DNA of 64,000 nt from a virus. The position numbers and the translations under genes were made by a program. Below the pieces are notes generated by a model, which made no database searches, had not been told where the DNA came from, and worked only from the letters and a program-made list of their open reading frames with translations. The stretch spans positions 37,116 to 101,115 of the IMG/VR virus record IMGVR_UViG_3300042309_002320; one strand, 5' to 3'. Positions 3,328 through 32,647 of the stretch are shown here, one piece after another; position 1 is the stretch's first letter; every line of letters starts with the position of its first letter.

Positions 3328-3330
3328 TTT

Positions 3331-3654: not shown

Positions 3655-4017
3655 TTACCATTTATTCACTGGGCATTTTTCGCTATCCCAGCTTAATTTG
3701 CTAATATAATTTCGTGTTCTATTTATTGGACAGCCACACTGTAAACAGGATTGATTTTTAAAGAATTCGCAGCTCTCGCATATTTTAAATCTTCTCTCTA
3801 TTTCTTCATCTTTGGCTAACACAAAATTATTTTTAGCATGAGCGACCAAGCTTTTAGAGAAGTTTTTAATTTTTGTGCCAAATCCTGGCTCTTCTGATCT
3901 AATATCCATATAAGAACATGGAAAAATCGGTGGATTATTATCTTCAACAGTGATCTCTAGTCCACATTTTGAGCATTTGTAAGTGTTATCTCTTATGCTT
4001 ATAAACTCACAAAACAT
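3655..4017 (-). CDS. Cys-rich zinc-binding protein (DUF6171-like)
   Basis: ERRFKICESCEFF...CLQCGC...K...EKCPVNKW, plus an N-terminal CSKCG. Confidence 0.6.
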   Translation of the reverse strand: MFCEFISIRDNTYKCSKCGLEITVEDNNPPIFPCSYMDIRSEEPGFGTKIKNFSKSLVAHAKNNFVLAKDEEIERRFKICESCEFFKNQSCLQCGCPINRTRNYISKLSWDSEKCPVNKW

Positions 4018-4019
4018 AA

Positions 4020-12200: not shown

Positions 12201-15200
12201 ACTTTAGTTGCCGATAATGTCCATTTTCCATTAATAAATATAAAAATACCTTTACTTCCAGCAGAGGCCGATAGTTCCAAAGGATTATCAAAATTTACTA
12301 CAAGTAAAGGAACTGATGCTGATCTTCGTCCTTGAATATGATGCAGCCTAACGCTTGCAGAATTTCCAGACCCTATTGTTCCTATAGCCATTACTGATGG
12401 TTTGCTCAAAGGTTCATAAAATCCACTTAATCTATCGTATCTACACAACAGTTTAGTTCCTTTTGGAGCAGTATATCCTGTTTTGTCTACTACATATACT
12501 AATCTTCTATATCCATTTTGCAATGGTTCTTTATTATATTCTATATCATCTATAAATGCTCTAGTAGAATATGTGCTATCATAATCGTCTTCTTTAATCA
12601 TATCGCTTTCTAGTGTTACATAAACATTCCTATACGGACATTTATTATCTGTTTTATTTGCTAAAAATTCTTGTAAAGAGGCTTGATCTGTTTTATTAGT
12701 AACTATAAATGGTGGCAAAATTTCTTCTTTGCATCCTCCTCCACTAGCGTCCCACACTCTTCTTTGCGAATCCCATCTTAAATCTATTGGGCCAACAGGC
12801 CATAAGTCTGGTTTTTGAGCCCAATTACGATAAAAATATTTGGATTTAGTACTTTTTTTAGTCCATTTACCAGTTCCTTCGCCGATCCCTGTTCCCGAGC
12901 CAGACCATGTATATGCTTGTGTGATAATATCGCCTAAAGGAGTTATTCCATATTGTGATGATGATGGGAGTAATGCTCCGGGTGCTTCTAAATTATTTTT
13001 ACCAAAATTTTTATCACCAGTTGTATCAACCAGTCTGAATCTTAAAACTAGACCATTATCATCAATATGATATGGCATATCATGAGCGTTCGGCGCAGGA
13101 TATCCTTCTGTATCAAATCCCCAAGAGTGTAGCATTAGCGGTCCTCGCAAAGCCATAAATCTTTGATTATTTAGTATAAATACATTATCTGTTGCTTGTT
13201 TATCCATATCATATCTATAATAGTCTTTATTAATATTATCTTTTCTAATATTATTATAGAGCACAAAATTATTACCATTCGTTTGAGGATTGTCTCCTCT
13301 GCCAATAGCCATTATGGAGTGTCTACAAATATCATCTGGTAAAGCATAAGGATTCCTAAATTCGCCACTTGGTACCACTATGGGATTTAAACTATATAAA
13401 TTAACATCTGGTAATGATGTTTTTTTAGTTGGGTCTTTATCATTCTTTTTGATATCTAATTTAGCCTTGGAGCATACGGAGCATGGTATTCTTAAAGGCG
13501 TAGACAATTCTGTACCATCTAAATTATAGATTAAGGTCTCTCTAGTATTAAGACACTTAGGACATGCTAAATCATATGTAAAATTATTATAAGATAGTTT
13601 TAAGTTTTGTTCACCACCAAAAAATGTTCCACTACCACTAACCAAAGTACTTAAAGGATAGGTTCCATTTTGTTTAGTTGGATAAAAAGAAACAGGTGAC
13701 AATATTCCATCAAGACTCATAGCGGATTTAGAAGAATAGTCTTCAAATAATTCTGATCCAATTTCATCTCCAGTAATAATACCTGCCCAATGATGATTTC
13801 GTATACTATAATAAACGCCAGAATAAAAAGCTTTATTTTGATCAGTACCATATGATGCATAATCCGAATATCTTAATGATTGTTCTCCATTATTATTTGT
13901 TATATTCCAAGCATCCGTAAATTTAACTCTATCTAAATGTTGTTGAGCTTGACTGATAATTAACTCAACCGGACTTGTGCCGTAAAATCTAGTACGTCTA
14001 TCATCAACCTTGTAAGCTTCTCTTGAAGATCTTGCTTTAGCTAATATATCAAGTCTTTCTAGTAGAGCTTTATTTGATAATCTTTTATTGATTGTGTTAA
14101 TTTGTTGATTAATTTTACTAATATTATTATTTAGTGTTCTTGCTTTATCTGTTAATTCTTTATTAAATAATCCTGTTTTAGGATTATATGTTTGAAAACT
14201 ATAACTAGTTTTTATACCATCGTTGGAGGTTTGAATACTAATATTACTAATAACCGGAAATCCATAATCATTAGAACTATTAACTACTATACTAGTATAT
14301 CTTAAAGTAGAATTTAGATTAGCATCATAAAATATAGAATTTTTTGAAGATATACCATATAATGTATTGTCAAAAGTAGAATTTCTATTTACTCCTAATA
14401 TATTAGGATTGAATGATCCGCCTATACCAAATATTGGTGGACCAACTATTGAGACTCTTCCGTTCTCAAGAACAGACTGATAGTTAACATCATATGCTAT
14501 ATTAAAATTAACAACATTTTCTAAAAATCTTATACCTCCATATTTCCATGGAACATAGTCGCTATTTTGTTCTACTTTAATATTTCCAAATAAATTATCA
14601 GATATATTAGGATTAAGCATAATCGAAGGATCATTGGCCCATGGGCCGTAAACTCTATTGTTGCTCTTTATTGGTATGCCAGCAAAAAGTGGGGTTGCCA
14701 TCCTTGGTTTAATAACATCATGTTTGGTTGCTTGATTGCTAGAGGCCCCTTTGACAACTATAAAATCTTGACTGATTACAGGTAATCTATATTGTTCTAA
14801 ATAATCTATATAAAAACGAAATTCTTGCATTTCTTCTTCTGAATATTCATATCTATTTTGATTTTTCTTTGATTTACCCTTTTCTTTTGGCTCTCTTTCT
14901 TCAGCATCGTCCGCTTCTTTCTTGGCCTGTTTAACAATACCAAGATTAGCTAATATAGCTAAATCTTCTTCGGCAACATTAGCAATCACAGTTAATGATG
15001 GATCAGCAGTATAGCTATTACTTATGCTCATAACCTCTATACCTGGACTCTCAACAATAGCTCTACAGTCTGTAAGATTAATAGGATTAAGAAATACTAA
15101 TTGCGAACATTGTGCAGAAATATATAACTTTGCTCCTGGAACAAATCGATCATAAGGATCATAGTTATTATTTTTTCTAATTAAAATAAAATCTTCATCT

Positions 15201-15466
15201 GTTAATGTATTAATATTTACAGACGGTTGTAGTAATGGACAAAAACTATCCTCTTCATCTTCACTAACTGGTATAACTACATTATTATCAATTCTTTGAC
15301 CAGTATCTGCTGTCGATGTTTTTTCCCAAGCCTGAATCCTACTCTTATCTGCGTCACTAACTCTATCTTCCTTCAGTGCTGTTACTAATTCATCTTTAGC
15401 TTCCTGTAGTTCTTTTTCAGCTTTACTAAGTTCTTCTTTTAATTCTGCTATAGTTTGTTCTGCCAT
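12197..15466 (-). CDS. Large tail-tip/hub-associated structural protein (1089 aa)
   Basis: Position in the tail block; N-terminal coiled coil; CPKC...CSVC insert; beta-rich body. Confidence 0.5.
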   Translation of the reverse strand: MAEQTIAELKEELSKAEKELQEAKDELVTALKEDRVSDADKSRIQAWEKTSTADTGQRIDNNVVIPVSEDEEDSFCPLLQPSVNINTLTDEDFILIRKNNNYDPYDRFVPGAKLYISAQCSQLVFLNPINLTDCRAIVESPGIEVMSISNSYTADPSLTVIANVAEEDLAILANLGIVKQAKKEADDAEEREPKEKGKSKKNQNRYEYSEEEMQEFRFYIDYLEQYRLPVISQDFIVVKGASSNQATKHDVIKPRMATPLFAGIPIKSNNRVYGPWANDPSIMLNPNISDNLFGNIKVEQNSDYVPWKYGGIRFLENVVNFNIAYDVNYQSVLENGRVSIVGPPIFGIGGSFNPNILGVNRNSTFDNTLYGISSKNSIFYDANLNSTLRYTSIVVNSSNDYGFPVISNISIQTSNDGIKTSYSFQTYNPKTGLFNKELTDKARTLNNNISKINQQINTINKRLSNKALLERLDILAKARSSREAYKVDDRRTRFYGTSPVELIISQAQQHLDRVKFTDAWNITNNNGEQSLRYSDYASYGTDQNKAFYSGVYYSIRNHHWAGIITGDEIGSELFEDYSSKSAMSLDGILSPVSFYPTKQNGTYPLSTLVSGSGTFFGGEQNLKLSYNNFTYDLACPKCLNTRETLIYNLDGTELSTPLRIPCSVCSKAKLDIKKNDKDPTKKTSLPDVNLYSLNPIVVPSGEFRNPYALPDDICRHSIMAIGRGDNPQTNGNNFVLYNNIRKDNINKDYYRYDMDKQATDNVFILNNQRFMALRGPLMLHSWGFDTEGYPAPNAHDMPYHIDDNGLVLRFRLVDTTGDKNFGKNNLEAPGALLPSSSQYGITPLGDIITQAYTWSGSGTGIGEGTGKWTKKSTKSKYFYRNWAQKPDLWPVGPIDLRWDSQRRVWDASGGGCKEEILPPFIVTNKTDQASLQEFLANKTDNKCPYRNVYVTLESDMIKEDDYDSTYSTRAFIDDIEYNKEPLQNGYRRLVYVVDKTGYTAPKGTKLLCRYDRLSGFYEPLSKPSVMAIGTIGSGNSASVRLHHIQGRRSASVPLLVVNFDNPLELSASAGSKGIFIFINGKWTLSATKV

Positions 15467-15471
15467 AGTTA

Positions 15472-18400
15472 TTATTCTTTTGGTTTTTTAGCATCTTCTG
15501 GTTTTGGTTGATTCTTTTTATTTATTGCATCATTTAAAGAACGAATTTTATATTTAAGATTATCAATTTTTCCTTGTAAATCACGAACTGTTGGATCTGA
15601 TGCATAATTACTTCTATCGATAGCATTAGTTTTGGTGCGTTTTGTTATGATTGCTTTTTTTGTATTATTATCTAATTTAGCCCACGAACACGTAACATCA
15701 TCAATATTTGGACTAACATTGTATCCTAGAATAGGTCCCAACAAACCATCATCATTTCTAAGGGCGTGCCAATAATTATCGCCAAAAACAAAACTATCAT
15801 CAATATAATTGCCTGGCTCTTCCCAGCCACCATCCGCTATTTCAAAATTATATCTTATATTTTGACTACCATGATAAACAAAAAATGATGACGTTGTGCC
15901 AGGAATAGCTATATCTATATAAGCTGTATCTTTATAAGCATATACGTCTGGCATTTTAACCATATATTGTTTACCATAGTATTTACTAGCTATAGTTTGA
16001 ATAAAACCATGAATAAGTTGTAAATCTTTAATAAAATTATGATTAAGATATAAATCCCAATTCATTTGCATTTTAGAATGCAAAGCATTTCTTGGCTCGG
16101 CCATATGCCCATCTTCTGCTATACTAGGACTAGATAAGTTAGTACCAGCTCCTCCCATACCACCACCCAGATTAACTGTGGATATTGGCTCACCAGGCAA
16201 TGGTGGCGGTTTTGCTTCCAAAAAGATATTTTTAGCCTTATAAGCATTTACTAACATAACAAAAAGATCAGGCTTACTAAAATAAGATTTACCTAAACAA
16301 TATGTCAAATATTCATCAAATCCAGAGCATCTTAACTCTGTTTCTTTAATTGTAAATCCAGCGGATTTATATTCAAGAGTTCTTACAACATTTCTATCAC
16401 TTTCTGCTGCTGGAGTTGAACTACTGTCTGATGATCCGGAACCATCGTCTGATGATCCGGAACCATCGTCTGATGATCCGGAACCATCGTCTGATGATTG
16501 TTCTTGTTGGGCATCAGCAGCATCTTCGTCTCTCTTTTGAGCATTCGGATTATTATTATCTTCTCCTCTATTATTCCATCCTGGCTCTTCATCACTCATT
16601 TTTGGTCTTTCAAGCTCCGGAGAATCAGTAGACGGACTTGTTTCTTCACCCTGTTCTTCCTCGTCCTCTTGCGCAATAAAAAGCGGTGTAAAAGTTATTA
16701 TATTTTGGGCAGATTGTTCCGAAGATGGTGATGGAGGGGGCGGAGGAGGCGGAGACGACCCACGGTTATTTACAGATACTCCTATCTCAGGAATAGCAGT
16801 GGAGCTACCTTGAAAACCTACTCCAGATAATTTATCCGGAGCCCCGCTTCCTTCGCTATCACTATTTGATCCATTCGGTGGACTATTCTCTGTTTCTTTT
16901 TGTTCTTCTTCTGTTCCTCCTTCACTATCGTCATTTTTTTTCTCATCATCTGATGCATCGTCGGTTTCACCGCTAGCATCTTCTGATTTTGGTGTTGAAG
17001 AAGTTTTTTCATTGTCACTAGTAGAAGCTACGCTTCCATCGTACATAGACAATGGTTCGCCTATTGATAATGATGGTAATTCATTAAGGTCAAAAGCAAT
17101 AGTAATCTGATTTGTCCAAGTATCTAAATATACTGGTCTGACAAATCTAAAAATATTAGAATCAGAAGTTGATCCGTATGTAACGTCTAGTTTTGTGCCA
17201 AAGTATGGACAAATAACATCTCTGAATAATGGTATAAATCTTGTGCCAGGATTATTACGAAATATTCTTGTTAAAAAATAATTACCACCTATTACGCTTT
17301 CTGGTCTACCTATTTCGGCATCTCCCCAATAAGGATCAATAGTTATATTATTTATTTTATTTGATCTTAGAAATGGATTTCTAATTTTTGATATTGATCG
17401 TCTATTATTAATAAATCTTTTAACTATAGGATTCCATATATAATTATTTTGTGCATAAGCTAATCTGTAGGTTTTTGCTTGATAAAATCTTTGTTGATTG
17501 CCTCCAAAAACTACTTTTCTAATACTATTCTGATTTGTCTCTTGTCCAAATGAGCTATTTTCAACATTAAATCCAGATGTTTCTAAATTCGATACAACTG
17601 CTGGAATCTGATATGTTGGATTATATTGAGTTCTATTAACAGTAACAACTTTAATAATAAATTCTATACCACCATTAGCTTTAACCGGCACAACAACTGT
17701 TAAAAAATCTAATCCAGTATCTTCTACAATCGTTGATATAAATTCTGATAGGCTTTTATCTGGACTACCAGATATTCTGTAGTCATAGGGAGGAGTGGGT
17801 AAACTACTTAAATCAAGAGAAAAAGAGTTATATGGTAATGATGTAAATCCTCTTCCAGGGCCAGCAGCAGTTATTACGCCAAAAGTATTCATTGTTGTTA
17901 AATGTGGTTCATTAACACCATTATAATTAATACCAACTCTTCTAATACTTTTTGATAAAATTCTACCAAATGGAGAATATGATCCATCCTCGTCTCTGGC
18001 TCCTCCATCAACATTAGCGGTTAATGCATGTATACTATCTATAATAGCTTTGGCACTAATCCCATTTTCATTTAATGCAGCACCACCGAATCTGTTATAT
18101 CCCATGCTTTCTAAAAATCCATAAACATTAAAAATATTAGCAATATTACCTTGAGATAATCTAGCATTTTTTGCACTAGTTACGGCCCCATCAAAATCTT
18201 GTAAGATTATTTTAGAATTATCCAATAAACTATCGAAAGATTCTATTTGTACGCTATATGTTACTCCTCCTGGTCTATTATTTCTTTCCCAACTTCTTAC
18301 TAATCCTATAAATTCAAAATTATCAAATTTAAAATATACTGGAGTATCAATAATATCATAAATATTAATTGGTCCATTTCTATTAACTGTTCCGTCCGGC

Positions 18401-18786
18401 TGCACATAAGTTCCTGTTGCAAAAAAACCAGGATCCTCATAAACCCAATAACTAGAAACAAAAGCGTTTCCAACCCATCTATAAAAAATCTTTCCGGGAG
18501 CATTTTTTTCTTTTTTTGTTAAGCTTGAACTATATGGATTACCAAATTCATCAACATAACAATCATCTCCTATGCAGTTATAGTAATGATTTAATGGATA
18601 ACTATTGGCATTATAATGAGGAATATTAGCAAAAATATTTGGTTGAAAATCTTCTATTAATTCTACTGTTAACGAACTAGCTTTTCCTCCCCATCCAACA
18701 TTACTACTAAAAGATACTACACTAGCACCTAAGAATAAAGTCTGTGCCAAAACATTTTCTTTATAATTCTGACAATTAATCGGCAT
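15472..18786 (-). CDS. Large tail-tip/hub-like structural protein (1104 aa) with an acidic low-complexity insert
   Basis: N-terminal FLGASVVSFSSNVGWGG...LTVEL...FEFIGLVRSWE...YSVQI is a beta pattern like tail hub proteins. AGGA SD upstream. Confidence 0.55.
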   Translation of the reverse strand: MPINCQNYKENVLAQTLFLGASVVSFSSNVGWGGKASSLTVELIEDFQPNIFANIPHYNANSYPLNHYYNCIGDDCYVDEFGNPYSSSLTKKEKNAPGKIFYRWVGNAFVSSYWVYEDPGFFATGTYVQPDGTVNRNGPINIYDIIDTPVYFKFDNFEFIGLVRSWERNNRPGGVTYSVQIESFDSLLDNSKIILQDFDGAVTSAKNARLSQGNIANIFNVYGFLESMGYNRFGGAALNENGISAKAIIDSIHALTANVDGGARDEDGSYSPFGRILSKSIRRVGINYNGVNEPHLTTMNTFGVITAAGPGRGFTSLPYNSFSLDLSSLPTPPYDYRISGSPDKSLSEFISTIVEDTGLDFLTVVVPVKANGGIEFIIKVVTVNRTQYNPTYQIPAVVSNLETSGFNVENSSFGQETNQNSIRKVVFGGNQQRFYQAKTYRLAYAQNNYIWNPIVKRFINNRRSISKIRNPFLRSNKINNITIDPYWGDAEIGRPESVIGGNYFLTRIFRNNPGTRFIPLFRDVICPYFGTKLDVTYGSTSDSNIFRFVRPVYLDTWTNQITIAFDLNELPSLSIGEPLSMYDGSVASTSDNEKTSSTPKSEDASGETDDASDDEKKNDDSEGGTEEEQKETENSPPNGSNSDSEGSGAPDKLSGVGFQGSSTAIPEIGVSVNNRGSSPPPPPPPSPSSEQSAQNIITFTPLFIAQEDEEEQGEETSPSTDSPELERPKMSDEEPGWNNRGEDNNNPNAQKRDEDAADAQQEQSSDDGSGSSDDGSGSSDDGSGSSDSSSTPAAESDRNVVRTLEYKSAGFTIKETELRCSGFDEYLTYCLGKSYFSKPDLFVMLVNAYKAKNIFLEAKPPPLPGEPISTVNLGGGMGGAGTNLSSPSIAEDGHMAEPRNALHSKMQMNWDLYLNHNFIKDLQLIHGFIQTIASKYYGKQYMVKMPDVYAYKDTAYIDIAIPGTTSSFFVYHGSQNIRYNFEIADGGWEEPGNYIDDSFVFGDNYWHALRNDDGLLGPILGYNVSPNIDDVTCSWAKLDNNTKKAIITKRTKTNAIDRSNYASDPTVRDLQGKIDNLKYKIRSLNDAINKKNQPKPEDAKKPKE
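16427..16498. repeat. 21-bp tandem repeat, 3.4 copies (encodes SSDDGSG)
   Basis: TCTGATGATCCGGAACCATCG at 16427, 16448 and 16469, plus a partial copy at 16490. Confidence 0.95.
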
Positions 18787-18797
18787 AATATTTCCTA

Positions 18798-20777
18798 CTA
18801 ATGATCTCTATAACTTTGTCCTATATTACATTGTTGGTATACCCAACTGATACTACGAGAATATCGTCCAGAATTTGGGTTCCAATTTTCATTATCACTG
18901 GATATATACACCAAACCTAAAGTTTGTAATGGCTCATTAAATAATGGACTAGAAGAATACGGCCTATGAGCCTCAATAACTTGCTCAATAGCCTTAAATA
19001 AATAGTTATTATAATGTAATGGACATTTTGGATTATTCAATGATATCTCATCAACTGATGATGCCGGAGGTATGGCTATTTCTATATTAATTGTCTTTTT
19101 GGGGGTAGTTCTTCCGGTTCTTTGTATAATTGGTCCTAATGCTCTGCCAATAACAAAAGTTTCTGCTGTACTATCCACAGGATTATCGTATGATACGGTA
19201 ATATTTTCACTAATAACACCAGGAATCAATAGTTGTTTATTATTAAACTCATAACTATAATTAATTGTGCCTTTTTTTGGATCAAAAGATTCACTAGTAG
19301 ACACAGGAACAGCACTCAATAAATTTTCTGTACTAAATATAGGATTATTTGGTAATGATGGCGGGTCGGTAACATAAGCTGGAATATAAGGAACTTTTCT
19401 ATCGGAACTATTTATTCCAAGACTAGCTCTTCTATATAGATAAGGCTTAATATGATTTGTCCATGCGTTTAACGCATTTTCTATTTTTGTACTTTTAATA
19501 TTTTGGCTAGGTGGATATTGAGGTGGTATTGGAAAAGCGGATGAGGCCGTGTCTGTGCTATTATAGGCTTGTGTATTAGTTTTATCCAACATATTATTCG
19601 CATAAGATAAATCCAATTTTGCATCTATAAGCCCATCATTGCCTATGCCTGTTGGAAGAACGCCACTTTCATGTTCCATTATATCTTGGTTTACGATAGC
19701 TAATCCTTCTATATTACCAGCAACTCTTACTGTTTTAACATAATCTTCTCCAGTTGAACATTCTATAGTATATGTTTCAGTATATGGGATACCGCTAGGC
19801 ATAGCTAACCATGTATCATTAGCTTCATACGTTCCATTAAAAATATCCATATTTATTGTTCTGTTATGATTAAAAGCAAATAAATTTTGCTCAAATGGTA
19901 TTTTTATATATGGCGAGCTATTTGTTGTGCTTCCACTAAATGTATTTTTTGACATTTTTTCTACCCAAGCTTTGGCGAGAACATACGGCTTGGTATTTTC
20001 GTCAAGCAAACCAGTAGCACAAATTTGATTTTTAGGGGGCAGTATACCTTTTGCAGATAATCTTCTTGTGATTCTAAATTGTGGAATATTAACAATATTT
20101 AGTCCATTTGATAATGGCAATCCTAGATTAATAGGATTATTATCATTAAATAAACCAAGATTAGGATTATGAAACTCTGGCCTCATTGATGGAGAAAAAG
20201 AAACATTGGTATATGATACATCATCCAGTGGCTCAACACTCCAACTATCAGACCTATCCGTTACATATTTTTCTATAACATTATTTGGATCTTCTATTAG
20301 ACTAGAATTTGTTTCTAGAGCTATAGTATAGTCTGCGCTTTGAACCCAATTATCGGCCGTATTACTAAATGACATATCCCTGACAGATAATCCACTAATT
20401 TCATAAAGTATATTATCTTCACATTTAAATTTTAATGTTCCATATGGACAACTAGTAAATAGTTGTTTTAATCCACTAACTCCGGCTATGATTCCACTAA
20501 ATCCTGGAAATGCTTTATCAACATCAACATTAGAAATATTACCTTCAGGAAATCTAAAAATTTTACCATTAAGATTTATGGATGTGACAAGAGTTTCTGG
20601 TAAATTATTATTATTAGCATTTATACTATAGCTGATATCAACAACTGGTACAGGTCCGGTGATGCTATGGATTGGTATATTGTTATATTCTATAATAATT
20701 TTAGGATTATTATTAATAGATTGTATCTGATTTAATTCTTCAGAATTTATTCCATTTATATTTAATTGATTAAACAT
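18798..20777 (-). CDS. Tail structural protein (distal-tail/hub-like), 659 aa
   Basis: Beta-rich, with alternating S/T-aromatic strands (SESFDPKKGTINYSYEF; ENWNPNSGRYSRSISW). Lies upstream of the tail-tip genes. Confidence 0.5.
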   Translation of the reverse strand: MFNQLNINGINSEELNQIQSINNNPKIIIEYNNIPIHSITGPVPVVDISYSINANNNNLPETLVTSINLNGKIFRFPEGNISNVDVDKAFPGFSGIIAGVSGLKQLFTSCPYGTLKFKCEDNILYEISGLSVRDMSFSNTADNWVQSADYTIALETNSSLIEDPNNVIEKYVTDRSDSWSVEPLDDVSYTNVSFSPSMRPEFHNPNLGLFNDNNPINLGLPLSNGLNIVNIPQFRITRRLSAKGILPPKNQICATGLLDENTKPYVLAKAWVEKMSKNTFSGSTTNSSPYIKIPFEQNLFAFNHNRTINMDIFNGTYEANDTWLAMPSGIPYTETYTIECSTGEDYVKTVRVAGNIEGLAIVNQDIMEHESGVLPTGIGNDGLIDAKLDLSYANNMLDKTNTQAYNSTDTASSAFPIPPQYPPSQNIKSTKIENALNAWTNHIKPYLYRRASLGINSSDRKVPYIPAYVTDPPSLPNNPIFSTENLLSAVPVSTSESFDPKKGTINYSYEFNNKQLLIPGVISENITVSYDNPVDSTAETFVIGRALGPIIQRTGRTTPKKTINIEIAIPPASSVDEISLNNPKCPLHYNNYLFKAIEQVIEAHRPYSSSPLFNEPLQTLGLVYISSDNENWNPNSGRYSRSISWVYQQCNIGQSYRDH

Positions 20778-20792: not shown

Positions 20793-23700
20793 TTAAATTG
20801 TTGGTACGCAAGTAGTACTTATATATGTACCTTGTACAGCTGGGTGGCACGGATATATCAATTCATTTGGTTGAGAGCACGAATATCCTTGGTTACAAAC
20901 ACTTTGATATAAGACCCATCTATATGCAGTATAAGGAGATGGAAGAGATTCTAAAACAACAGCTACTTCAGAATCATTAGTGCTTGATAATCCCCCATAA
21001 ACATCACAATAATAGTAACATTCCCCAGCATTCACGGGTGGAGGTGGGGGTGGTGGCGGAGGCGGCGGCGGAGGCGACGATGGCTCATTACATCTACTAC
21101 AATACGATCCACTAGGACCATATACATATAATTCTACAACATGTGTTACATTAGCCCTTAATGGAGTTAAGGCACAATTAGGAGCACAATTACCACAATC
21201 ATTATAGTGGCAAGTCATATGAGTAATTGTAACAGAGGAGCTTAATGGTAAAGAACTACTGGAGGCGGTGTTTAGTGAATCTTTAGGTAATTGACCTGTC
21301 CACGTTACAGCCACCGGGCCTGAACCACATCCAGCATCTTGATAGTATATTTGGTTAAGAGGTTTGATAAATAATATAGCATTTTGATTGCTTTGTAATA
21401 TACCTTTTAGCGAAACTGTTATAGATCCATTTGCATTAGTTACACAATTAAATATACTCAATGGTCCTGTTGCCAATCCTCTTGTTGGGGTCGGAGTTGG
21501 AGCAGGAGTTCTTGTCGGTGTTACAGGATTAGATGATCCGCATGGTCCTGCTAGTACTATACCATTTCCAGAACTATATCGAGGTATATATAATGAGCCA
21601 GTAGTCTGATCGACATCTAAATGTCCAAGATATTGAGGACCTATTTTGTTAATAATAGATCTGTTCTGCTTAGTTTCTAAATTAACGCCAACAACATAAT
21701 TATCCGTTAAATTATTATTATAGGTTATATAATATCCTACTTTATTATTTTTATCTATCTTTAAGAAATTTTCCACGTTATAAGAGGATCCAAGAAGATC
21801 GTTAACTATAGATATGGTACTTAGTAAAGATGGATTTTGTTGATAATACGAAGTTGATTGATTTAATTCATAAATTCTAATAGAGCTTTGTGATCCGGCC
21901 TGTCTAGCATCAAATGAATATAATTTATTATTAAATATATATGGAGTAACTGATATCGATCCAGGAGAAAAATTATTTATGGTCGTAACTGCGTATGTCG
22001 AACCATCTATTATAAACAATGTATGCTCAGGAGAGGCTCCAACATGATTACTAACTACTACATAAATCTTATTATTATTTTCATCAACAGATACATTTCC
22101 ATTGCCAAAAAGTTTATTTAACGAAATTGATGTTTCTATAGTATCTGTTGAGCAATTTATAGCTGTTAGGATTGCATTACTATTAGAATCATATCTCATA
22201 ATAAAAATTTTATTAGTCACACTATTTATTGCTAAGGCTGATGGATGTATTTTGCTTTGCAAAGATATGGTATTAACTAATGAATCTGTTGATCCATTTA
22301 TTACCAGTACAGAGCCATTATTAGGTGTTCCATAATTTATAAGATAAAGTTTATTTAAAGACTCATTAATTATTAAATTACCGAATTCAGCGCCTGCTGG
22401 TCCAGATATCGAGGATGTTATACTTTTAGTTATACTATTTACAACTCTAATTCTATCACTAATTACATCAACAAGATATAATTTTTTACTACTATTATTA
22501 AAGTAACAGCCATAAGCTTCTGTGGTTGGAAATAATACCTCTGTAGAATGAGTACATTGTGTTAAAGGTAATGGTGACGAAGATGGTGTTCTCGTCGGAG
22601 TTCTTGTTGGGGTAACAGACGGAACAACAGCGGCCACGGTTGATGTTGGAGTGACCGTTATTTGAGGAGTTCTAGTTAATGTTATGCTTGGTGTTGGTGT
22701 GGGTGTTGGAACAACACATTCATAACCAGAACATCTTAGTGCTACTCTACCAGCATTATTGTATACAGTATCTACGACCCGTGTTCCTGCATTATTAATT
22801 TGCATAGTTTGAAATATATTCGCGCTACGAATATTATCGCTTAGTTTTTCTTTATATATCCAATTATTATTTACATATTCATATATTATTATTCTTTCAT
22901 TGATAATACTTATAGGATCTTTATGCATAATTGCTAAAATATTATTAGTTTCAGAAATTGCTGCTCTACCATCCTCATTTGTAGCAAAAATAGATGTGAT
23001 GGGAGATCCCTTTAGGGTCCATTGATTATTTATTAGAGTATAAACTTCTACTCTACTTCGTCCGCTAGCCACGAATGTATCATTACTTTTTGCGTCAATA
23101 TACCATAGTATATTACCAGCTGATGGAGAAAAAGATGTACTTATTGTTGCCGATTTAACCCATGCATTATTAATCCAATCATAAACTCTTACTATACCAG
23201 TAGTAATACCAATAAATAATCTACTACCATCAGGACTTAATTTAATATTCGGATAATATCCTACTAAATCAGTAGAATTTTCGCCAAATATTGAGAATCC
23301 TTTTTGTGTCCATGTTCCATTAATAAATTCGTATACTTTAATTTTACCAGCTGTTGCTTGTTCGGCCCCGGTGGAGCCAACATAGTCTGGACTACCAATA
23401 GCAATAGTATTACCGTCACTGCTCATACTTACAATAGAACCTAGACCCTCCCCAGTATTTATTCCTAATATATCTGAACCTTTTTTAGACCAAGATGTAC
23501 CATTCCACATATATACAGTAACTTTTCCTTTATATTGTCCAACAGTAGAATATATACTTGTTGAATGTCTTGGTGTTCCTATCGCTACTGTGGTACCAGC
23601 AGTATCTGTATCTATAGAATCATTACCGCTAAATGCAGTAACAATCTCGGCATTATCTAATGTTATCCTACTAGCTCTTTCGATCCAGGCTGTATTGTTC

Positions 23701-26700
23701 CAATCATATACTACTACCGTATTAACAAATAATCCAGCTATTGTGGATCCGTTTCTACTTAAAGAATATGTTACTAATCCACGATTACTAAGTTGTGGTT
23801 CCAATAGTTCTCCTAATTGTTTGTAAGAGCATACGGGCAACATAGTTGGTGTTGGAGTAACTCTGGGGGTAGATGTAGGAACAGGAGTTCGTGTTGGGGT
23901 AGGTGATGGCGTTGGAGACGGTACTGCTTGACCTATCGGTAATACGCACACACAATCAATCGCTGCTCCAAAGCAACCACAATTAGCGCATGTGCTTTCA
24001 AATCTGATTGTTGTTGTTGTGCTTGAAGCGGTAAAATCTATTATTTCTGCGATCCATCCCATGCTTTCGTATGATTCAAATGTTGTATTGCTAGGATCAA
24101 AAGAGAAATTATATTCTTCAGCATAGGTGCCTGTGATAACAACCTTAAATGTTCTTATAACATTAATATTTCCATAATTATTACCAGATTTTTTAAATGA
24201 TAGTCTATAAACACCATTTACAATCGTTGGTATATTTTGTTCAATATAACCAGGACTACAAGAATTTAAATCAACCCATACTTTAATTGGTTGATTTGTC
24301 CCATAGAAGTGCAACGAATGAACATCAACATTATTGGTTACCCAATTAGCTGCTGTTCCTAAATTCATTGATGGTACACTAATCTCGAAATCACCATTAA
24401 CAACCAAATTATTAGCACAAGATGGACAATCAGGAACCACCGGTATAGTAATTGGTGGAGGACAAACAAAGTTAGTATCGATTTCTTGACCACGTCCAGA
24501 TGATGTTGCACTAGACGGATCTGGTAAATTATTGGATTTGGTGGCATATGTAAAATATGCAGCATTAGCGGATCCGCCAGAATAGTATGCCGCTTTATAC
24601 CATTCATTTTCAGTAGGAATAGCATATTTTGCTGCCGGATTTCTTGTTATCGATGACTGACTCATGTCATACGCGCCATTTTCTGTGATTCCATAGTCAT
24701 TAGAGTCTTTAGAATCTATTTTTCCATTACTAAGCCAATTACAATATCTAGCTAAATCAAACCATGTTATATAATTTACTGGTTTATCTCCCATATTTAA
24801 TTTTGTTGTATAATAATATAAAGAATCTTTTTCGGTGCGTAATATACCTCCTCTAGGATCGTTGCTCATAGCTTCTTTATATAGATTATATCTATCATAA
24901 ACACTAGCAACAGAATTTAAAAATTGTGCATATTCACAATTGGTTAATAGATATTTTTTGATTGCGTATCTATAAACGACAGAGCCGTATCCATTAGTAT
25001 CAGCAACATTATTAACATCATCAATTAATGCATAATTAATAAGATCTAACGATCTAGTATCTCTAACTATTATTCGTCCACCAATAGTAGCATTAGCTGA
25101 TATTGGAGACTGTGGACTTCTATAGCCTGATCCAAGTTCTAGACTATTGGATATCCATGATCCTCCTCTAACAATTCTACTACTACTAACCTGACCCTCT
25201 GTCCATTCATTTAAATTACCAGTTTGATCATACGTTCCATAAAAACTACTACTACCATTTGTTCCGACAGTTGTTACATTACCTGTCTGATCGTTCCACA
25301 CAGCAACAGAACCATAATTAGCAGTTGATACCAAATTGAAACTTGCTGGCGAAGCTGGCTCATTAAATGATTCATTACAAGAAATACATTGTTTTGTTGG
25401 ATAATGTAATTTGTAAAAAATCTCGTATTCATGACATACTATTAAATTATTAAGCTGAATTTGCATAACATCAGTAGTTAATAATGTACAGTTTTCTCTA
25501 TTAGCAGAACTCCAACAATCTTTAATATCTTGATACGATGAAGGAGATGTTTGTATTCTATAATTAATATTTAATCTATTATTTCCTTTTTGTGGCTTTA
25601 GATAATTTTGCTGTATAATATTATCCGATGTTAAGGTTTTAAATGATAAATTTTGTGCAGAAGATCCTGATACTTGTAAACAGCTTTGAGCAACTTGATT
25701 TGTAGCAGCAGCGTATATCCAATCGAGCCATCTTTCTGACGAGCAATTAAATTCTACAAACTGATATTGTAAAGTTTCTACAATATATTCTATAAACTCA
25801 TTAATCCCCGGTTCTATATCGGCCCTATTCATTGAACCGCTTACGTCTACAAATATTAAAATTCTAATTGGGGTCTCTTGATCTGTTTGTTCAATAATCG
25901 GTAAGAAGTGAGTTTCGAATTGTGTTAAAATATCGTTATAAGTTGTTGGTCTACTTACTTTAACCACCCTGTCTGTTCCAAAAGGAAGTTTAGGAACAGC
26001 ATTAGATGGATATATCCATTGTGTACTATCTGCTGGAGCTAATACTATAAATCTTTCAGCATCTACAGCTCCATTTTCTATTAGAGATGTAACATTATTG
26101 GTATCTTCGACCCAGTCTTTTCCTATAGTACCTAGGAGTCCAACATAGTCCGGATTTGCTTCGTCAATAAATATCATGATAAAATCTGTTGGTAAAATAA
26201 CAGCTGGTGGTATGTATATACCAGTTACTTCTGGTCCAATAAATTCGCAATGTTTAGTTAATGTTACTACTCTAAAATCATAATATTCTCCTAATTCTAA
26301 TCCTGTTATAGATGTCGATGCTGTATCTAATATAAAAGCGTCTCTAATCCATGATGATGAACTAGTTTTATACTCTATAACATATCCTTCTATATCTGGA
26401 TACTGTGGTATTTGATCTTCCCAGCTCAACGATACAATATTATCACTAACCTCGTAATTAGTAATTATTGATGATGCTACAGTAGTAGCGCCACACTCAA
26501 CAAAGTCCGGACACTCCAAAATAAATGATTCGGTTCTTGATACTCCACTAGTTTTATCTTTTATGATAGTTTCCAGTATAAATTGTTTTAACTCAACATT
26601 TTTAGTAATGCCAACAAAAGCATTTTGTCTAGTATTAGATGCTTTAAAAGTAAAAAATTCTTTATCTAAATATGCTCTATTACTAAAATCTGCATCTAAG

Positions 26701-29700
26701 CATTTATCTGGTGACGGAGTAGGAGTTGGTGTGGGGGTGACGCTGGGCGTTGGTCCAAATACTGGTAATGTTGGTGGCGGGGTTGTGGGAGGAGAAACTA
26801 AATTGCAATCATAGTCTGTAAATTGTACTTTTCCATCCGGCTTGCCATTACCAAAACCATCTGCTTCTACGCACTGAAATAAATTAGAGAAAGATCTATC
26901 TGGTAAATCAGATTGTGTGGGCCATCTCCAATATCCAGCATTGGTACCTCCTCCTTTATAGTATGCTGCTTTATACCATTCACTATAGCTTGGTAAAAAA
27001 TATTTAGCATTAGCGTTTCTAACAATAGGTTGGTCAAAATTTTCTGCTGTTGTTCTGCCATTAAGTGTATACGCGCCATCTTCTGTTGTTGTATTGTCTT
27101 GGCTACCATTAGGCTTTCCATTGTGTAACCAATTACAAAATCTAGCGGCAGAAAACCAGTTAACAAATACAACTGGTTTATTATTCATAGGCTGCGGTCT
27201 ATTGTTTGCAGAAGTTGTTTTTGAACTATATGTATAATTACCAGACGTTCCACTTCTAACAATACCTCCTTTGGTATTGCTTATCATATTAGTATCGTAT
27301 AATTTATAGATATCTGTTTTTGCTACAGCATTAAGAAATTCTACATATTGACAATTCGTTACTTCGTACTGACCAATTTTATATTCATAAGATACAGCCC
27401 CTACAGGATCTGTGGTAAAAATTGGATTATTAGGATTACCAGCATCTCCAACAGTAACAAAATATGGTAAATTATTAGGATTAGTTAAACTCGCTATTCT
27501 AAATCCATGACTAGCTACTTTTAGTGTCGGATCTTTAGCATGATAGGATGTTTTTGTGTAATCAAGCTCATTATCTGGACTATCAAATCCTCCACCCAGA
27601 CACCATCTTCTCGTTACTTTACGACCACCCACTACCGAAACATGATGTTCTTCTGTCCATTCTTCAGCGTTCCCACCCTGATCATATGTACCATATGCGC
27701 TAGGTCCACCATTAGAGCCAACTGTAGTAACATTACCATTGTCAATCCAAATTGGGCCTTTGGCACATAATTTTAGATTTGCACTATTAGGACCGGGAGG
27801 AAAAGTTAAAGAATATACACTATAAATACCTAAACTATTAACAGCTCGACATGTGATATATAAAATTCTTGGAGTTAATTCGTAGTAAAAAATATTAACA
27901 GGATCGACAGCATCAAAATCTATGGTGTCTTGTACAGTATCGTTGAGTAGATTGATTACAGACAAGGAATTTGAGTCTGTATTACACACATATAATTTTT
28001 TAGCAAAATTAATCAATGCCATAGACGTTGGCGATGATCCAACAGCGATTGTTTTTTCTATGGTTCTTGTTGTTAGATTAAGAACACTAATATTATTACT
28101 AAGATAATTTGTAATATATCCTTTATCATTTAATGCTACAAATGACCATGGTCTTAAACCACTAGAATTAATATTGCTAATAACACTATCGTTAACCGGA
28201 TCTATGATACTAATAGAATTAGATTCTGTATTACAAACATAAATTAAATTATTGTGAAGATACAGGGATCTCGGACCATTCTGTACTGTTATTGATGTTA
28301 TAAATTGATATGTTGTGGCATTAAAAATATTGATAGTAGAATTGGGCGAACTTACTGTGCCAGTATTAGTAACATAAATTTTATTATTTAGATATAGCAA
28401 GCTAGCAGGACTGGTACCGACATTCAATATAGTTTGTATAACAGTGTTATTAGTAGCATTTATAATACTTATACTATTATCATCAGAATTAATAACATAA
28501 ATTCTATTATCTATAGAATTACTAATAATATCAGTTGGGTTATTGCCAACAGATACGGTGCTAAGTTGTGTTTTTGTTGCGAGATCAACAATACTAATAG
28601 TGTCGCTGTCACTATTTGTAACATAAGCTCTTGTTCCAAATAGAAAAGTGGCGCTGTTAGGATTTGATTGAACTGTAACTAACTCCAAATCTTTTATTGG
28701 AGGTAATAGAGGAGGTGGCGGTGGTGGAGGCGGTGGAGGAGGTGGTGGCGGTGGAGGAGGTGGTGGCGGTGGAGGAGGAGGCGGAGGTGGCGGAGGAGGA
28801 GGTGGAGGAGGGGGTGGTGGACTAGCTATCAAAATACTAGCAGCTCCGGTAACATCTAGTCTGCCACCAGTACTAATCGGGGCAGCGCCATTGGTAGCAA
28901 AAGCTGGGGTTGGTATTGCGCTAAAAAGAATAGCGTTTTTAATTTGTGCGGCAGATACGTTTGGAAAAATACTTGCCAATAACGCAACAGCTCCGGCAAC
29001 ATGGGGACAGGCCATACTAGTTCCACTAATAGAAAAATAGTCACCATTCTTCCATGTGCTTAGTATGCCACCTTCTTCAGTCTGGTCTCCTCCTGGTGCT
29101 GCTATATCAACATTAGCTAAGCCATAATTAGAAAATATACTCCTAGCCCCAGTAATAGTCATGCTTGCTACAGATATAATACCATCTGTTCCGCTTGGAT
29201 CGTTCCATGTATAAGAGGATGGATATTTTGGTAATGAATCATTATTTGTTCCATTATTAGCAGCAGCACATACGCTAATTATACCTTGAGCATAAGCGGC
29301 TTTCATAGCATCTAATTGAGATTGAGAAAATGATCCGCCGGCATAACTATGATTAATTACAACAATATTTCTGCCTTTTGGATCATTATTTTTAAATAAT
29401 TGTTTTAATGATGTTGTATAATTTACAGCTAGTATAATTTTAGCCAAACTGCTTGTAAGTTCAAGACTACTACATGGTGGTGGTTTGTCACTTCTACAAG
29501 AGAATATTTTTCCATTCAATAGACTAACTCTTTTACAAACTCCTGTCACTCCCAAATTATTGTCACCAAAAGCTCCTATTGTACCAGCAACATGGGTTCC
29601 ATGACCATTATAATCATTATATCCTTCGTTATTGGTGCTAAAATCTCCTTCTAGATTATTATTAGAATCATATGTGAATCTAAGATTACCAGCTAAATCT

Positions 29701-30212
29701 GCATGAGTAATCATATTATTTAATAATATGCCAGTATCTATAACCACAGCATAAACATCATGAGTTCCTATATGTCCTCGATTCCATAGGGGGACAACAT
29801 TTATATGAAAATTGCCTCTCGCTGGATTTAGACCCCATAATTCGAACCATCTACTATCATTACTCAAAGAATTATAACTTTTATTAATTATTGGTTCTTC
29901 GAATCTAATTATTTCATCAGCTTCAAAAAATGCTATATTTTTATTATAATTCAATGTATTTTGTGTTTCAAAAGTATTTTGCCTAACCAAAAACATCCCA
30001 GGAAGACCCAATCCTCTAATAACAGTATATTCAGGTCCTAAAATAGTATAAATATCATTTATAGATTCCATTCTAGATATTGCTTCTTCAGTAAGTCTAA
30101 TAATAAAATTACTAGAATACTCTGATTGAGAATTAATTAATATTGATTCTATTTTAGTATCAACAAATTGAGTAAACCATATCTCTGATACTTTATTATA
30201 ATCACTATTCAT
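20793..30212 (-). CDS. Giant modular virion protein: propeptide + S8 subtilase, poly-Pro, YVTN propeller, 2x permuted FGE/SUMF1, FN3, VWA-like, DUF642/CBM-like, two more propellers, Cys-rich end
   Basis: VIDTG / HGTHVAGTIG / GTSMACPHVAG triad; AYVTN...ISIVD repeats; YEVTN...WYKAAYY; LSWE...GYVIEYK...YDFRV; IFVDVSGSM; NLVVNGDFE; TP-rich linkers between modules. Confidence 0.85.
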   Translation of the reverse strand: MNSDYNKVSEIWFTQFVDTKIESILINSQSEYSSNFIIRLTEEAISRMESINDIYTILGPEYTVIRGLGLPGMFLVRQNTFETQNTLNYNKNIAFFEADEIIRFEEPIINKSYNSLSNDSRWFELWGLNPARGNFHINVVPLWNRGHIGTHDVYAVVIDTGILLNNMITHADLAGNLRFTYDSNNNLEGDFSTNNEGYNDYNGHGTHVAGTIGAFGDNNLGVTGVCKRVSLLNGKIFSCRSDKPPPCSSLELTSSLAKIILAVNYTTSLKQLFKNNDPKGRNIVVINHSYAGGSFSQSQLDAMKAAYAQGIISVCAAANNGTNNDSLPKYPSSYTWNDPSGTDGIISVASMTITGARSIFSNYGLANVDIAAPGGDQTEEGGILSTWKNGDYFSISGTSMACPHVAGAVALLASIFPNVSAAQIKNAILFSAIPTPAFATNGAAPISTGGRLDVTGAASILIASPPPPPPPPPPPPPPPPPPPPPPPPPPPPPPPPPPPPPLLPPIKDLELVTVQSNPNSATFLFGTRAYVTNSDSDTISIVDLATKTQLSTVSVGNNPTDIISNSIDNRIYVINSDDNSISIINATNNTVIQTILNVGTSPASLLYLNNKIYVTNTGTVSSPNSTINIFNATTYQFITSITVQNGPRSLYLHNNLIYVCNTESNSISIIDPVNDSVISNINSSGLRPWSFVALNDKGYITNYLSNNISVLNLTTRTIEKTIAVGSSPTSMALINFAKKLYVCNTDSNSLSVINLLNDTVQDTIDFDAVDPVNIFYYELTPRILYITCRAVNSLGIYSVYSLTFPPGPNSANLKLCAKGPIWIDNGNVTTVGSNGGPSAYGTYDQGGNAEEWTEEHHVSVVGGRKVTRRWCLGGGFDSPDNELDYTKTSYHAKDPTLKVASHGFRIASLTNPNNLPYFVTVGDAGNPNNPIFTTDPVGAVSYEYKIGQYEVTNCQYVEFLNAVAKTDIYKLYDTNMISNTKGGIVRSGTSGNYTYSSKTTSANNRPQPMNNKPVVFVNWFSAARFCNWLHNGKPNGSQDNTTTEDGAYTLNGRTTAENFDQPIVRNANAKYFLPSYSEWYKAAYYKGGGTNAGYWRWPTQSDLPDRSFSNLFQCVEADGFGNGKPDGKVQFTDYDCNLVSPPTTPPPTLPVFGPTPSVTPTPTPTPSPDKCLDADFSNRAYLDKEFFTFKASNTRQNAFVGITKNVELKQFILETIIKDKTSGVSRTESFILECPDFVECGATTVASSIITNYEVSDNIVSLSWEDQIPQYPDIEGYVIEYKTSSSSWIRDAFILDTASTSITGLELGEYYDFRVVTLTKHCEFIGPEVTGIYIPPAVILPTDFIMIFIDEANPDYVGLLGTIGKDWVEDTNNVTSLIENGAVDAERFIVLAPADSTQWIYPSNAVPKLPFGTDRVVKVSRPTTYNDILTQFETHFLPIIEQTDQETPIRILIFVDVSGSMNRADIEPGINEFIEYIVETLQYQFVEFNCSSERWLDWIYAAATNQVAQSCLQVSGSSAQNLSFKTLTSDNIIQQNYLKPQKGNNRLNINYRIQTSPSSYQDIKDCWSSANRENCTLLTTDVMQIQLNNLIVCHEYEIFYKLHYPTKQCISCNESFNEPASPASFNLVSTANYGSVAVWNDQTGNVTTVGTNGSSSFYGTYDQTGNLNEWTEGQVSSSRIVRGGSWISNSLELGSGYRSPQSPISANATIGGRIIVRDTRSLDLINYALIDDVNNVADTNGYGSVVYRYAIKKYLLTNCEYAQFLNSVASVYDRYNLYKEAMSNDPRGGILRTEKDSLYYYTTKLNMGDKPVNYITWFDLARYCNWLSNGKIDSKDSNDYGITENGAYDMSQSSITRNPAAKYAIPTENEWYKAAYYSGGSANAAYFTYATKSNNLPDPSSATSSGRGQEIDTNFVCPPPITIPVVPDCPSCANNLVVNGDFEISVPSMNLGTAANWVTNNVDVHSLHFYGTNQPIKVWVDLNSCSPGYIEQNIPTIVNGVYRLSFKKSGNNYGNINVIRTFKVVITGTYAEEYNFSFDPSNTTFESYESMGWIAEIIDFTASSTTTTIRFESTCANCGCFGAAIDCVCVLPIGQAVPSPTPSPTPTRTPVPTSTPRVTPTPTMLPVCSYKQLGELLEPQLSNRGLVTYSLSRNGSTIAGLFVNTVVVYDWNNTAWIERASRITLDNAEIVTAFSGNDSIDTDTAGTTVAIGTPRHSTSIYSTVGQYKGKVTVYMWNGTSWSKKGSDILGINTGEGLGSIVSMSSDGNTIAIGSPDYVGSTGAEQATAGKIKVYEFINGTWTQKGFSIFGENSTDLVGYYPNIKLSPDGSRLFIGITTGIVRVYDWINNAWVKSATISTSFSPSAGNILWYIDAKSNDTFVASGRSRVEVYTLINNQWTLKGSPITSIFATNEDGRAAISETNNILAIMHKDPISIINERIIIYEYVNNNWIYKEKLSDNIRSANIFQTMQINNAGTRVVDTVYNNAGRVALRCSGYECVVPTPTPTPSITLTRTPQITVTPTSTVAAVVPSVTPTRTPTRTPSSSPLPLTQCTHSTEVLFPTTEAYGCYFNNSSKKLYLVDVISDRIRVVNSITKSITSSISGPAGAEFGNLIINESLNKLYLINYGTPNNGSVLVINGSTDSLVNTISLQSKIHPSALAINSVTNKIFIMRYDSNSNAILTAINCSTDTIETSISLNKLFGNGNVSVDENNNKIYVVVSNHVGASPEHTLFIIDGSTYAVTTINNFSPGSISVTPYIFNNKLYSFDARQAGSQSSIRIYELNQSTSYYQQNPSLLSTISIVNDLLGSSYNVENFLKIDKNNKVGYYITYNNNLTDNYVVGVNLETKQNRSIINKIGPQYLGHLDVDQTTGSLYIPRYSSGNGIVLAGPCGSSNPVTPTRTPAPTPTPTRGLATGPLSIFNCVTNANGSITVSLKGILQSNQNAILFIKPLNQIYYQDAGCGSGPVAVTWTGQLPKDSLNTASSSSLPLSSSVTITHMTCHYNDCGNCAPNCALTPLRANVTHVVELYVYGPSGSYCSRCNEPSSPPPPPPPPPPPPPVNAGECYYYCDVYGGLSSTNDSEVAVVLESLPSPYTAYRWVLYQSVCNQGYSCSQPNELIYPCHPAVQGTYISTTCVPTI
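28710..28820 (-). repeat. Poly-proline tract, 37 consecutive CCN codons
   Basis: 111 nt of NGG triplets on the + strand, using mixed synonymous codons. Confidence 0.95.
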
Positions 30213-30240
30213 AATAGATATTATTTGTCCTAAATATTAA

Positions 30241-31377: not shown

Positions 31378-31385
31378 AATTTTTC

Positions 31386-32597: not shown

Positions 32598-32629
32598 AAA
32601 ATATAGCAAATAAGTTTAAAGTAAGTAAT

Positions 32630-32646
32630 ATAATAATACACCATTC
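32630..32646 (-). promoter_or_regulatory. Putative late-promoter motif GGTGTA + AT-rich
   Basis: - strand reads GAATGGTGTATTATTAT in an intergenic gap. The same core occurs in the other three large gaps. Confidence 0.55.
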
Positions 32647-32647
32647 G

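Follow-up and report, generated by a model that had tools for sequence, protein, structure and literature searches.

The stretch of DNA considered here (the window, 64,000 nucleotides) is the last 64 kb of a linear 101,115-bp IMG/VR virus record, IMGVR_UViG_3300042309_002320 (hereafter G000), which derives from an uncultured freshwater tailed phage and has a CheckV completeness of around 70%. One gene on its minus strand encodes a 3139-residue protein that begins with a pro-subtilase of peptidase family S8, continues through a run of 37 prolines and then extends into a multi-domain binding array. The S8 domain looks catalytically competent from its motifs and modeled fold, and it is the only S8 gene found in G000. 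We favor, tentatively and at slightly less than even confidence, the reading that this protein is a tail-associated fiber with a latent protease that would cut a proteinaceous component of the host surface. This reading is based on the position of the gene within the tail module, the pro-S8 fold and its active-site residues, the lack of a signal peptide, the conservation of the catalytic residues among relatives, and the mosaic nature of the binding modules.

The pro-subtilase head

The Pfam family Peptidase_S8 (PF00082) covers residues 157-432 of the protein (E 1.6e-41, 142.9 bits against a cut-off of 21.8). The catalytic aspartate, D159 (codon 29736-29738), lies in the motif VIDTG at 29730-29744, the histidine, H204 (codon 29601-29603), in HGTHVAG at 29583-29603, and the serine, S399 (codon 29016-29018), in GTSMA at 29010-29024. 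The triad runs in the order Asp-His-Ser, and the oxyanion asparagine, N319 (codon 29256-29258), is found in AAANNG. A first-pass annotation, made from the letters of the DNA, had placed the three catalytic motifs at these sites, which lie on the minus strand.

The same annotation had proposed a propeptide in front of the enzyme. No Pfam family matches the first 140 residues, even at E<=10, and the evidence for a propeptide comes from the fold. An AlphaFold2 (AF2) model of residues 1-464, built from a 30-sequence alignment, has a mean pLDDT (predicted local distance difference test) of 86.4 and a predicted template modeling score (pTM) of 0.91, and the only segment below a pLDDT of 50 comprises residues 113-117. 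In Foldseek comparisons the model aligns over 435-466 columns with unautoprocessed pro-subtilisin E (3whi) and with pro-Tk-subtilisin (3wiu, 2e1p), and its catalytic part matches deseasin MCP-01 (3vv3, E 2e-28). The target-normalized template modeling (TM) scores of 0.82-0.84 for 3vv3 and 3whi are those of a subtilisin alpha/beta fold. Deseasin 3vv3 is also the best solved relative by sequence (34% identity, E 1e-33); the N-terminus of the mature enzyme falls at residue 115. The top fold matches in the BFVD carry the name 'Peptidase inhibitor I9'. Residues 1 to about 113 are thus modeled as an I9-type propeptide, aligned with unprocessed pro-subtilisins though without a Pfam match. Because the low-confidence segment and the aligned deseasin N-terminus coincide, the junction between the pro and mature parts is predicted near residues 113-117. 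The I9 propeptides of subtilases catalyze folding and afterwards, up to their own degradation, inhibit the enzyme tightly, and by analogy the propeptide of this protein may first fold and then inhibit its protease.

The first 33 residues constitute an extension that is common to the viral family and that stands where some cellular relatives carry a signal peptide. Three of its positions do not vary among the viral modules that were aligned (7 of 7, a catalytically dead one included), namely M1, Y5 and F13. A signal peptide is absent, as had been stated: the best 12-residue hydropathy among windows starting in the first 45 residues is only 0.7, and by the same measure six other proteins of the viral family reach 0.29-1.12, against 2.1-2.9 in the five cellular relatives with obvious signal peptides (of nine tree sisters examined). 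Its absence fits assembly in the cytoplasm.

Relatives and conservation of the catalytic residues

HMMER, run exhaustively against 1.84 billion representatives, returned 76,765 S8 matches. Among the best 150, four align from residue 4 or earlier both of the query and of themselves (P0123, P0126, P0132 and the fragment P0170). A word-index search with residues 1-130 returned four matches as 'shorter' (two identical fragments plus P0170 and P0255) and none as 'near'. Scanning viral contigs with the single sequence gave no relative, whereas an alignment-based scan identified three loci, on records that are 27%, 55% and 83% complete (G001, G002 and G003, respectively). Dozens of replication genes are syntenic between these records and G000 at 55-78% identity, and on sequence the three belong to the same phage family.

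In each of the three relatives the pro-S8 cassette opens two neighboring genes, which encode proteins of 1034 and 2358 residues in G001, 1005 and 2769 in G002, and 1018 and 2210 in G003, such that one cassette stands at the head of giant proteins of different build. When 235 S8 modules, ten of them from the viral family, were placed in a FastTree phylogeny, the ten formed one clade with a Shimodaira-Hasegawa-like support of 0.984 and long branches. Within it, two subclades correspond to the first and the second gene of each pair (supports 0.924 and 0.741), and the protein of the window falls with the second. The single clade, the paired genes and the long branches together point to one old capture of an S8 module, followed by duplication. 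The first-pass annotation had looked to S8 phylogeny for the donor lineage; the viral modules are indeed of one descent in the tree, but their sister group consists of 15 metagenomic proteins and no donor can be named from it. Clusters looked up for ten proteins carried no taxon names. A scan of genome contigs with only the generic GTSMA motif recovered generic S8 proteins from many phyla, at most 39% identical and none of them an orthologue, so that neither donor nor host can be named from it.

Nine of the ten viral modules keep all of the D, H, N and S residues at only 26-46% identity, which argues that catalysis is under selection. The second gene of G002 (2769 residues) differs in that the catalytic positions read S/K/-/W on a very long branch, and yet neither the N-terminal motif nor any part of the module has been lost.

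The tail module and the binding array

The gene is the seventh after that for a 4648-residue tape measure protein (PF10145, E 5.8e-23; phrog_28, E 2.9e-21) and lies on the same strand. The tape measure gene heads an array of 13 genes, from 54111 down to 3655, in which gaps and overlaps do not exceed 38 nt; the S8 gene thus occupies a position in the tail-morphogenesis module, just upstream of late genes that are conserved in the relatives (Table 1). The length of the tape measure would correspond to a tail of several hundred nanometers, unless much of the protein consists of extra domains; the rule of thumb is roughly 0.15 nm of tail per residue.

Table 1. Features of the S8 gene and of its surroundings (window coordinates; aa, residues of the 3139-residue protein).
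Feature	Position	Strand	Basis or remarks
Whole S8 coding sequence (P0001)	20793..30212	-	Single open reading frame, ATG start, 3139 aa: pro-subtilase, poly-Pro linker, multi-domain binding array
N-terminal extension, aa 1-33, consensus M..[DN]YN.P...WF..F	30114..30212	-	In all 10 viral-family modules
Predicted I9-type propeptide (beta-alpha-beta fold), aa 1-~113	29874..30212	-	Fold; without Pfam match
S8 catalytic domain, aa ~114-464	28821..29873	-	Pfam, motifs, AF2 model, fold match
37 consecutive proline codons, aa 465-501	28710..28820	-	CCT 16, CCA 14, CCG 6, CCC 1
Internal 18-nt tandem duplication in the tract	~28731-28778	-	Codon-string recurrence
YVTN-type beta-propeller repeats, aa ~528-776	27885..28631	-	TIGR02276, E 3.1e-32, 5 stretches, above cut-off
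First FGE-sulfatase-type (lectin-like) module, aa ~825-1110	26883..27740	-	Shared with other giants, including those of relatives
Fibronectin type III (fn3), aa 1254-1321	26250..26453	-	E 1.7e-6, 28.6 bits against cut-off 25
Second FGE-sulfatase-type module, aa ~1630-1910	24483..25325	-	Pfam, shared-module comparison
Choice-of-anchor C / DUF642-like domain, aa 1935-2090	23943..24410	-	Below curated cut-offs
Repeat region, aa ~2126-2467	22812..23837	-	Shared with the FG-GAP part of a 1688-aa protein and with the second S8 protein of G001
Run of 13 prolines (second poly-Pro stretch), aa 3047-3059	21036..21074	-	Precedes the Cys-rich end
Cys-rich C-terminal domain, aa 3060-3139 (80 residues)	20796..21035	-	After the second poly-Pro run
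Tape measure gene, 4648 aa	40165..54111	-	PF10145, phrog_28
Late genes directly downstream (659, 1104, 1089, 2726, 120 aa)	3655..20777	-	Homologues in the same order in G001-G003

Beyond the prolines, the protein is composed of modules associated with binding. Pfam matches to propellers fall below their cut-off in this protein, the FGE-sulfatase family (PF03781) matches with an E of 4.7e-24, and a second propeller-like region precedes the 13-proline run. The repeat region recurs in another protein of G000, of 1688 residues. A proline tract followed by a Cys-rich end also closes the truncated upstream proteins of the three relatives. By its domain content, 'giant adhesin' is a fair description. 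The first-pass annotation had put the protease at the end of such an adhesin, and this stands with the correction that the end in question is the N-terminal one. The C-terminal parts are mosaic, with lectin-like and FG-GAP modules in common with other giant proteins of these phages, which is the pattern expected of host-range determinants. PHROGs recognize in the protein only a 'protease' family and, weakly, a 'kinase' family.

FGE-sulfatase-type modules are found in at least three proteins of G000 (window 36573-40163, minus strand; L002 4618-9684, plus strand; and window 24483-27740, minus strand) and also at the C-termini of proteins of 1023-1324 residues in the three relatives. This fold is typical of the targets of diversity-generating retroelements (DGRs). 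A DGR variable protein was considered and set aside, as no reverse transcriptase (PF00078) was found in the 101-kb, ~70%-complete record; template repeats were not searched. A fiber with an S74 intramolecular chaperone likewise found no support, there being no PF13884 match and the protease here being of family S8 and N-terminal.

The proline linkers

The tract directly after the S8 domain has exactly the 37 prolines, in mixed codons, that had been reported. An all-trans polyproline II (PPII) helix rises by 0.31 nm per residue, so that 37 prolines would span about 11 nm if fully in this form. The mixed codons had been taken as an argument against slippage; this argument is weakened, as mixed codons are compatible with slippage or duplication. 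A string of ten codons recurs six codons further on (an 18-nt unit), a recurrence reached in only 17 of 5000 codon shuffles, and duplication of higher-order units has therefore contributed to the tract, the mixed codons notwithstanding. Tandem Repeats Finder (TRF) describes the tract as having a period of 9 with 77% matches. Its use of proline codons (CCT 0.43, CCA 0.38) is somewhat unlike that of 11 neighboring genes (CCA 0.55, CCT 0.28).

Similar linkers, poly-Pro or Pro/Thr-rich, connect the domains of many giant proteins in this phage family. After the S8 domain, long proline runs are found in four of the seven aligned viral modules, Pro/Thr-rich sequence in two, and only TPSP in one. The run in the long protein of G001 has 21 prolines with further P-rich sequence around it, that in its short protein extends over about 50 residues with interspersed G, and that in the dead G002 copy has about 14. 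Runs of at least six prolines are also present in proteins that have no protease, for instance a run of 16 in a 758-residue protein of G000 and runs of 15 and 20 in a 565-residue protein of G003. The contigs themselves begin or end in such sequence: G001 opens within a run of 54 prolines, G002 within runs of 25+9, and G003 ends in PPPVS repeats (G001 2-718, G002 1-663, G003 116907-117938), with a Cys-rich C-terminal domain following in each case. On these sequences, this type of linker characterizes the family as a whole and shows no conservation of length, which ranges from none to at least 54 prolines. Since it also occurs in protease-free proteins, varies in length and carries the 18-nt duplication, the tract of the window is best regarded as a generic linker and not as a protease-specific ruler or length-tuned stalk. 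The 'stalk' of the first-pass annotation is hence correct as to a polyproline run after the S8 domain but not as to its being specific to the protease, and the second run, near the C-terminus, had been overlooked. Serine endopeptidases cleave X-Pro bonds poorly, and this resistance may rationalize a proline linker beside an active protease.

It had also been suggested to look for the elongation factor EF-P elsewhere in the genome. No EF-P domain (efp, PF01132) and no prolyl hydroxylase-type domain (PF13640) was found in G000-G003, all four of which are incomplete contigs. G003 encodes a 2687-residue protein (L088 2430-10493, plus strand) with a cyclophilin-type prolyl isomerase domain (E 3.4e-32). 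Near it (11925-19243, minus strand) lie genes for an RCC1-repeat protein, a GT10 fucosyltransferase-like protein and a PLOD-type glycosyltransferase, together with a PF11397 N-acetylglucosamine (GlcNAc) transferase (E 7e-77) and a sulfotransferase. These proteins may modify the Pro/Thr-rich fibers. None of the other three contigs includes this region.

Comparison with known systems

Classical pro-subtilases (3whi, 2e1p/3wiu) and deseasin MCP-01 (3vv3) align with the AF2 model over propeptide and catalytic domain and have the same D, H, N and S residues. They are, however, small and secreted, whereas the protein of the window has no signal peptide, around 2600 further residues, a 33-residue viral extension and no match to Pfam I9. 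A comparable architecture is found in giant cellular surface proteins annotated as 'S8 family serine peptidase' (2000-5000 residues), in which the S8 domain is often near the N-terminus and is followed by adhesin-type arrays. These are 30-39% identical and come from metagenome-assembled genomes labeled Planctomycetota, Verrucomicrobiota, Sumerlaeia and Kiritimatiellia, and some, such as P0130, have a homologous type of propeptide. In contrast to the viral protein they are cell-encoded; they are uncharacterized, and the nine tree sisters examined have at most PPPP runs.

Cultured phages do encode S8 proteases, for example the Bacillus phages Tsamsa, SP-15 and Goe3 among others, but as stand-alone proteins that are not fused to fibers. 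Only 68 of 50,697 cultured-phage records have an S8 match, at about 25-35% identity, and none covers 80% of the query. A tail-borne enzyme combined with binding domains is familiar from virion-associated depolymerase fibers and spikes and from tail-tip lysins, such as the tailspike polysaccharide lyases and T4 gp5. The known virion-borne enzymes of phages cut polysaccharide or peptidoglycan. Compared with depolymerase spikes, the enzyme here is N-terminal and the protein has a beads-on-a-string appearance, not that of a beta-helix, so the likeness is one of functional analogy. Fold matches in the BFVD include cyanophage proteins labeled baseplate wedge or proximal tail fiber (E ~1e-8 to 1e-9), which are leads only. 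In the literature searched, PMC9004378 and PMC9602691 among it, no phage tail fiber with a fused subtilase was found described. Passages of PMC9004378 name a 'sheath subtilisin' solely as one of the structural genes that went into a tree.

Possible functions of the protein

As a tail-associated fiber, the protein would be assembled into the tail in the cytoplasm, where the propeptide would fold the protease and then keep it inhibited, as in classical I9 subtilases. On the free virion, the binding modules would hold the host surface and the protease would cut an S-layer, sheath or outer-membrane protein, thereby clearing the way for the tail. Such a fiber would represent the protein-cutting counterpart of the polysaccharide depolymerase fibers, and the polyproline would serve as a generic, extended and protease-resistant spacer, shielding the joint next to the active protease.

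Several points weigh against this reading. No Pfam or PHROG tail-fiber family matches the 3139-residue protein. The S8 proteins of cultured phages are small, and that of Tsamsa, gp173, is the product of a small gene among non-structural genes. The dead copy in G002 suggests that the module also has a non-catalytic use, in binding, docking or folding. The polyproline linkers are not tied to the protease in this phage family. An unregulated subtilase in the compartment of assembly would be hazardous, and its inhibition by the propeptide is an assumption drawn by analogy with other subtilases. Finally, phage fibers are usually anchored by their N-terminal end, which is where the enzyme sits; it is as likely to be virion-proximal as to be held out on a rod away from the binding domains, as the first-pass annotation had pictured it.

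The N-terminal position and the dead copy keep alive the idea that the pro-S8 module is mainly structural, docking or folding the giant fibers at the baseplate and cutting only its own propeptide, with host recognition left to the C-terminal parts. Nothing but this module is conserved between giants that are otherwise unrelated, which is the usual layout of an anchor; the invariant M1, Y5 and F13 would suit such a role, as would the retention of both module and extreme N-terminal motif in the fully dead paralogue. Yet all four catalytic residues persist in nine of ten modules at low identity, and the cleavage of the propeptide that the fold suggests would sever the covalent link between the conserved N-terminal peptide and the fiber. 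We consider this idea unlikely. A different proposal, which appears less probable still, is that the protein is not a virion component at all but a late-made protease-adhesin, intracellular or released at lysis, that in free form would degrade, for example, receptors or the surface proteins of neighboring cells. That it has no homology to known structural families, that cultured-phage S8 proteins are non-structural where examined, and that its cellular relatives are surface or secreted proteases would all be in keeping with this. Set against these points, the gene lies inside a tight array of tail genes, between the tape measure and the conserved late genes, 3139 residues would be a large cost for a soluble factor, and the mosaic binding modules recur in other proteins of the tail module.

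The least probable of the alternatives, and in our view a very unlikely one, is that of a maturation protease that would act while the tail is assembled and process its giant proteins, be it the 4648-residue tape measure or others, as the first-pass annotation had offered as its second option. The gene shares an operon-like array with the tape measure, and in several phages this protein is known to undergo cleavage, by proteases yet to be named. The maturation proteases known from phages are small and dedicated, though, whereas this one is fused to around 2600 residues of binding modules and is duplicated with different C-termini in three of three relatives, one copy being dead; duplicated genes fused to different binding arrays are a poor fit to such a role.

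Returning to the fiber with a latent protease, a more far-reaching version can be outlined, although we think it rather unlikely. Here a family of freshwater phages would possess 'protein depolymerase' fibers, that is, pro-subtilases built into the tail, silenced by their propeptides and activated outside the cell to cut a surface layer of the host. In its boldest form, the non-covalent complex of propeptide and enzyme, together with the N-terminal peptide, would itself be the joint between fiber and virion, so that activation would be coupled to release.

Other features of the record

The left 37 kb of the record encodes ribonucleotide reductase (RNR), PhoH, RecA, DnaB, a primase, a split DNA polymerase III (Pol III) alpha subunit and glycosyltransferases; no tRNA genes were found. 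The Pol III alpha subunit is divided in G000 between two open reading frames with an RNase T-like exonuclease gene between them (L003 9698-14058, plus strand). Its closest match in the cultured-phage collection has only ~34% identity, so no close cultured relative exists in that collection, where a 513-residue protein of the record likewise has weak partial matches. Of 21 window proteins scanned, 17 lack a PHROG match, so the lineage is poorly known. A PD-(D/E)XK nuclease (L003 7713-9701, plus strand) has 662 residues and a LAGLIDADG domain in G000, compared with 334 residues in the relatives; this points to the insertion of a homing element.

Among the late genes, those for the 1104- and 1089-residue proteins (12197-18786, minus strand) are the two halves of a single gene for a protein of 2068-2118 residues in the relatives; either the gene was split in G000 or it was fused in them. 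An AF2 model of the conserved 659-residue neighbor, from a 4-sequence alignment, had a pLDDT of 40.2, too low to use, and atlas look-ups for the two genes after the tape measure gave scores of at most 0.86, leads at best. A 332-residue protein with a proprotein-convertase P-domain (PF01483, E 1.8e-9; PHROG of unknown function) is encoded apart from the S8 gene, near the contig end (61867-62865, minus strand). Promoter and terminator predictions in 18000-37000 were at the level of chance (123 against 108±13, and 10 against 8.5±2.7).

Occurrence in lake metagenomes

At least 99% of the words sampled from 28300-29300 are present in each of 22 metagenome runs of freshwater or lakes, dated 2016-2024; these runs are flagged as possible sources of this DNA and are thus not all independent. 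The identity of the sequence in lake runs over these years indicates that the gene is maintained. No RNA runs are listed among the sequencing runs that contain it. Long Logan contigs match both flanks of the proline tract without a difference in all four runs compared, and stop inside it, one flank at 28755/28758 and the other at 28749/28752. A listed piece of 46 nt (28731-28776) bridges the flanks with 0 differences in three of the four runs; none of the listed pieces shows indels or other letters in the tract, and none spans it whole, so that the length of the tract in these runs rests on overlapping pieces.

Around the tract (28708-28843), all four lake runs show a rise in summed depth, from 9-143 to 39-7162, and between 3 and 437 contigs per run match with a likeness of only 90-95%. 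These metagenomes commonly contain similar CCN tracts that belong to other sequences, and a 1049-bp contig in run X8, with a phage-like depth of 135.6, carries two of them. To judge from the contigs of the three relatives and from the Logan contigs, (CCN)n tracts seem to break assemblies here, and because the relatives' contigs end in such tracts, genes of this type are probably under-sampled.

Implications for phage biology

A tail-borne subtilase, if the favored reading is true, would extend the enzyme repertoire of virions to surface layers made of protein. The signal-less pro-S8 cassette and its N-terminal motif would then provide a sequence handle with which such phages can be found. The family also illustrates a modular mode of fiber evolution, in which one enzymatic head appears to have been duplicated, and once to have died, in front of shuffled binding arrays that are joined by polyproline or Pro/Thr linkers.

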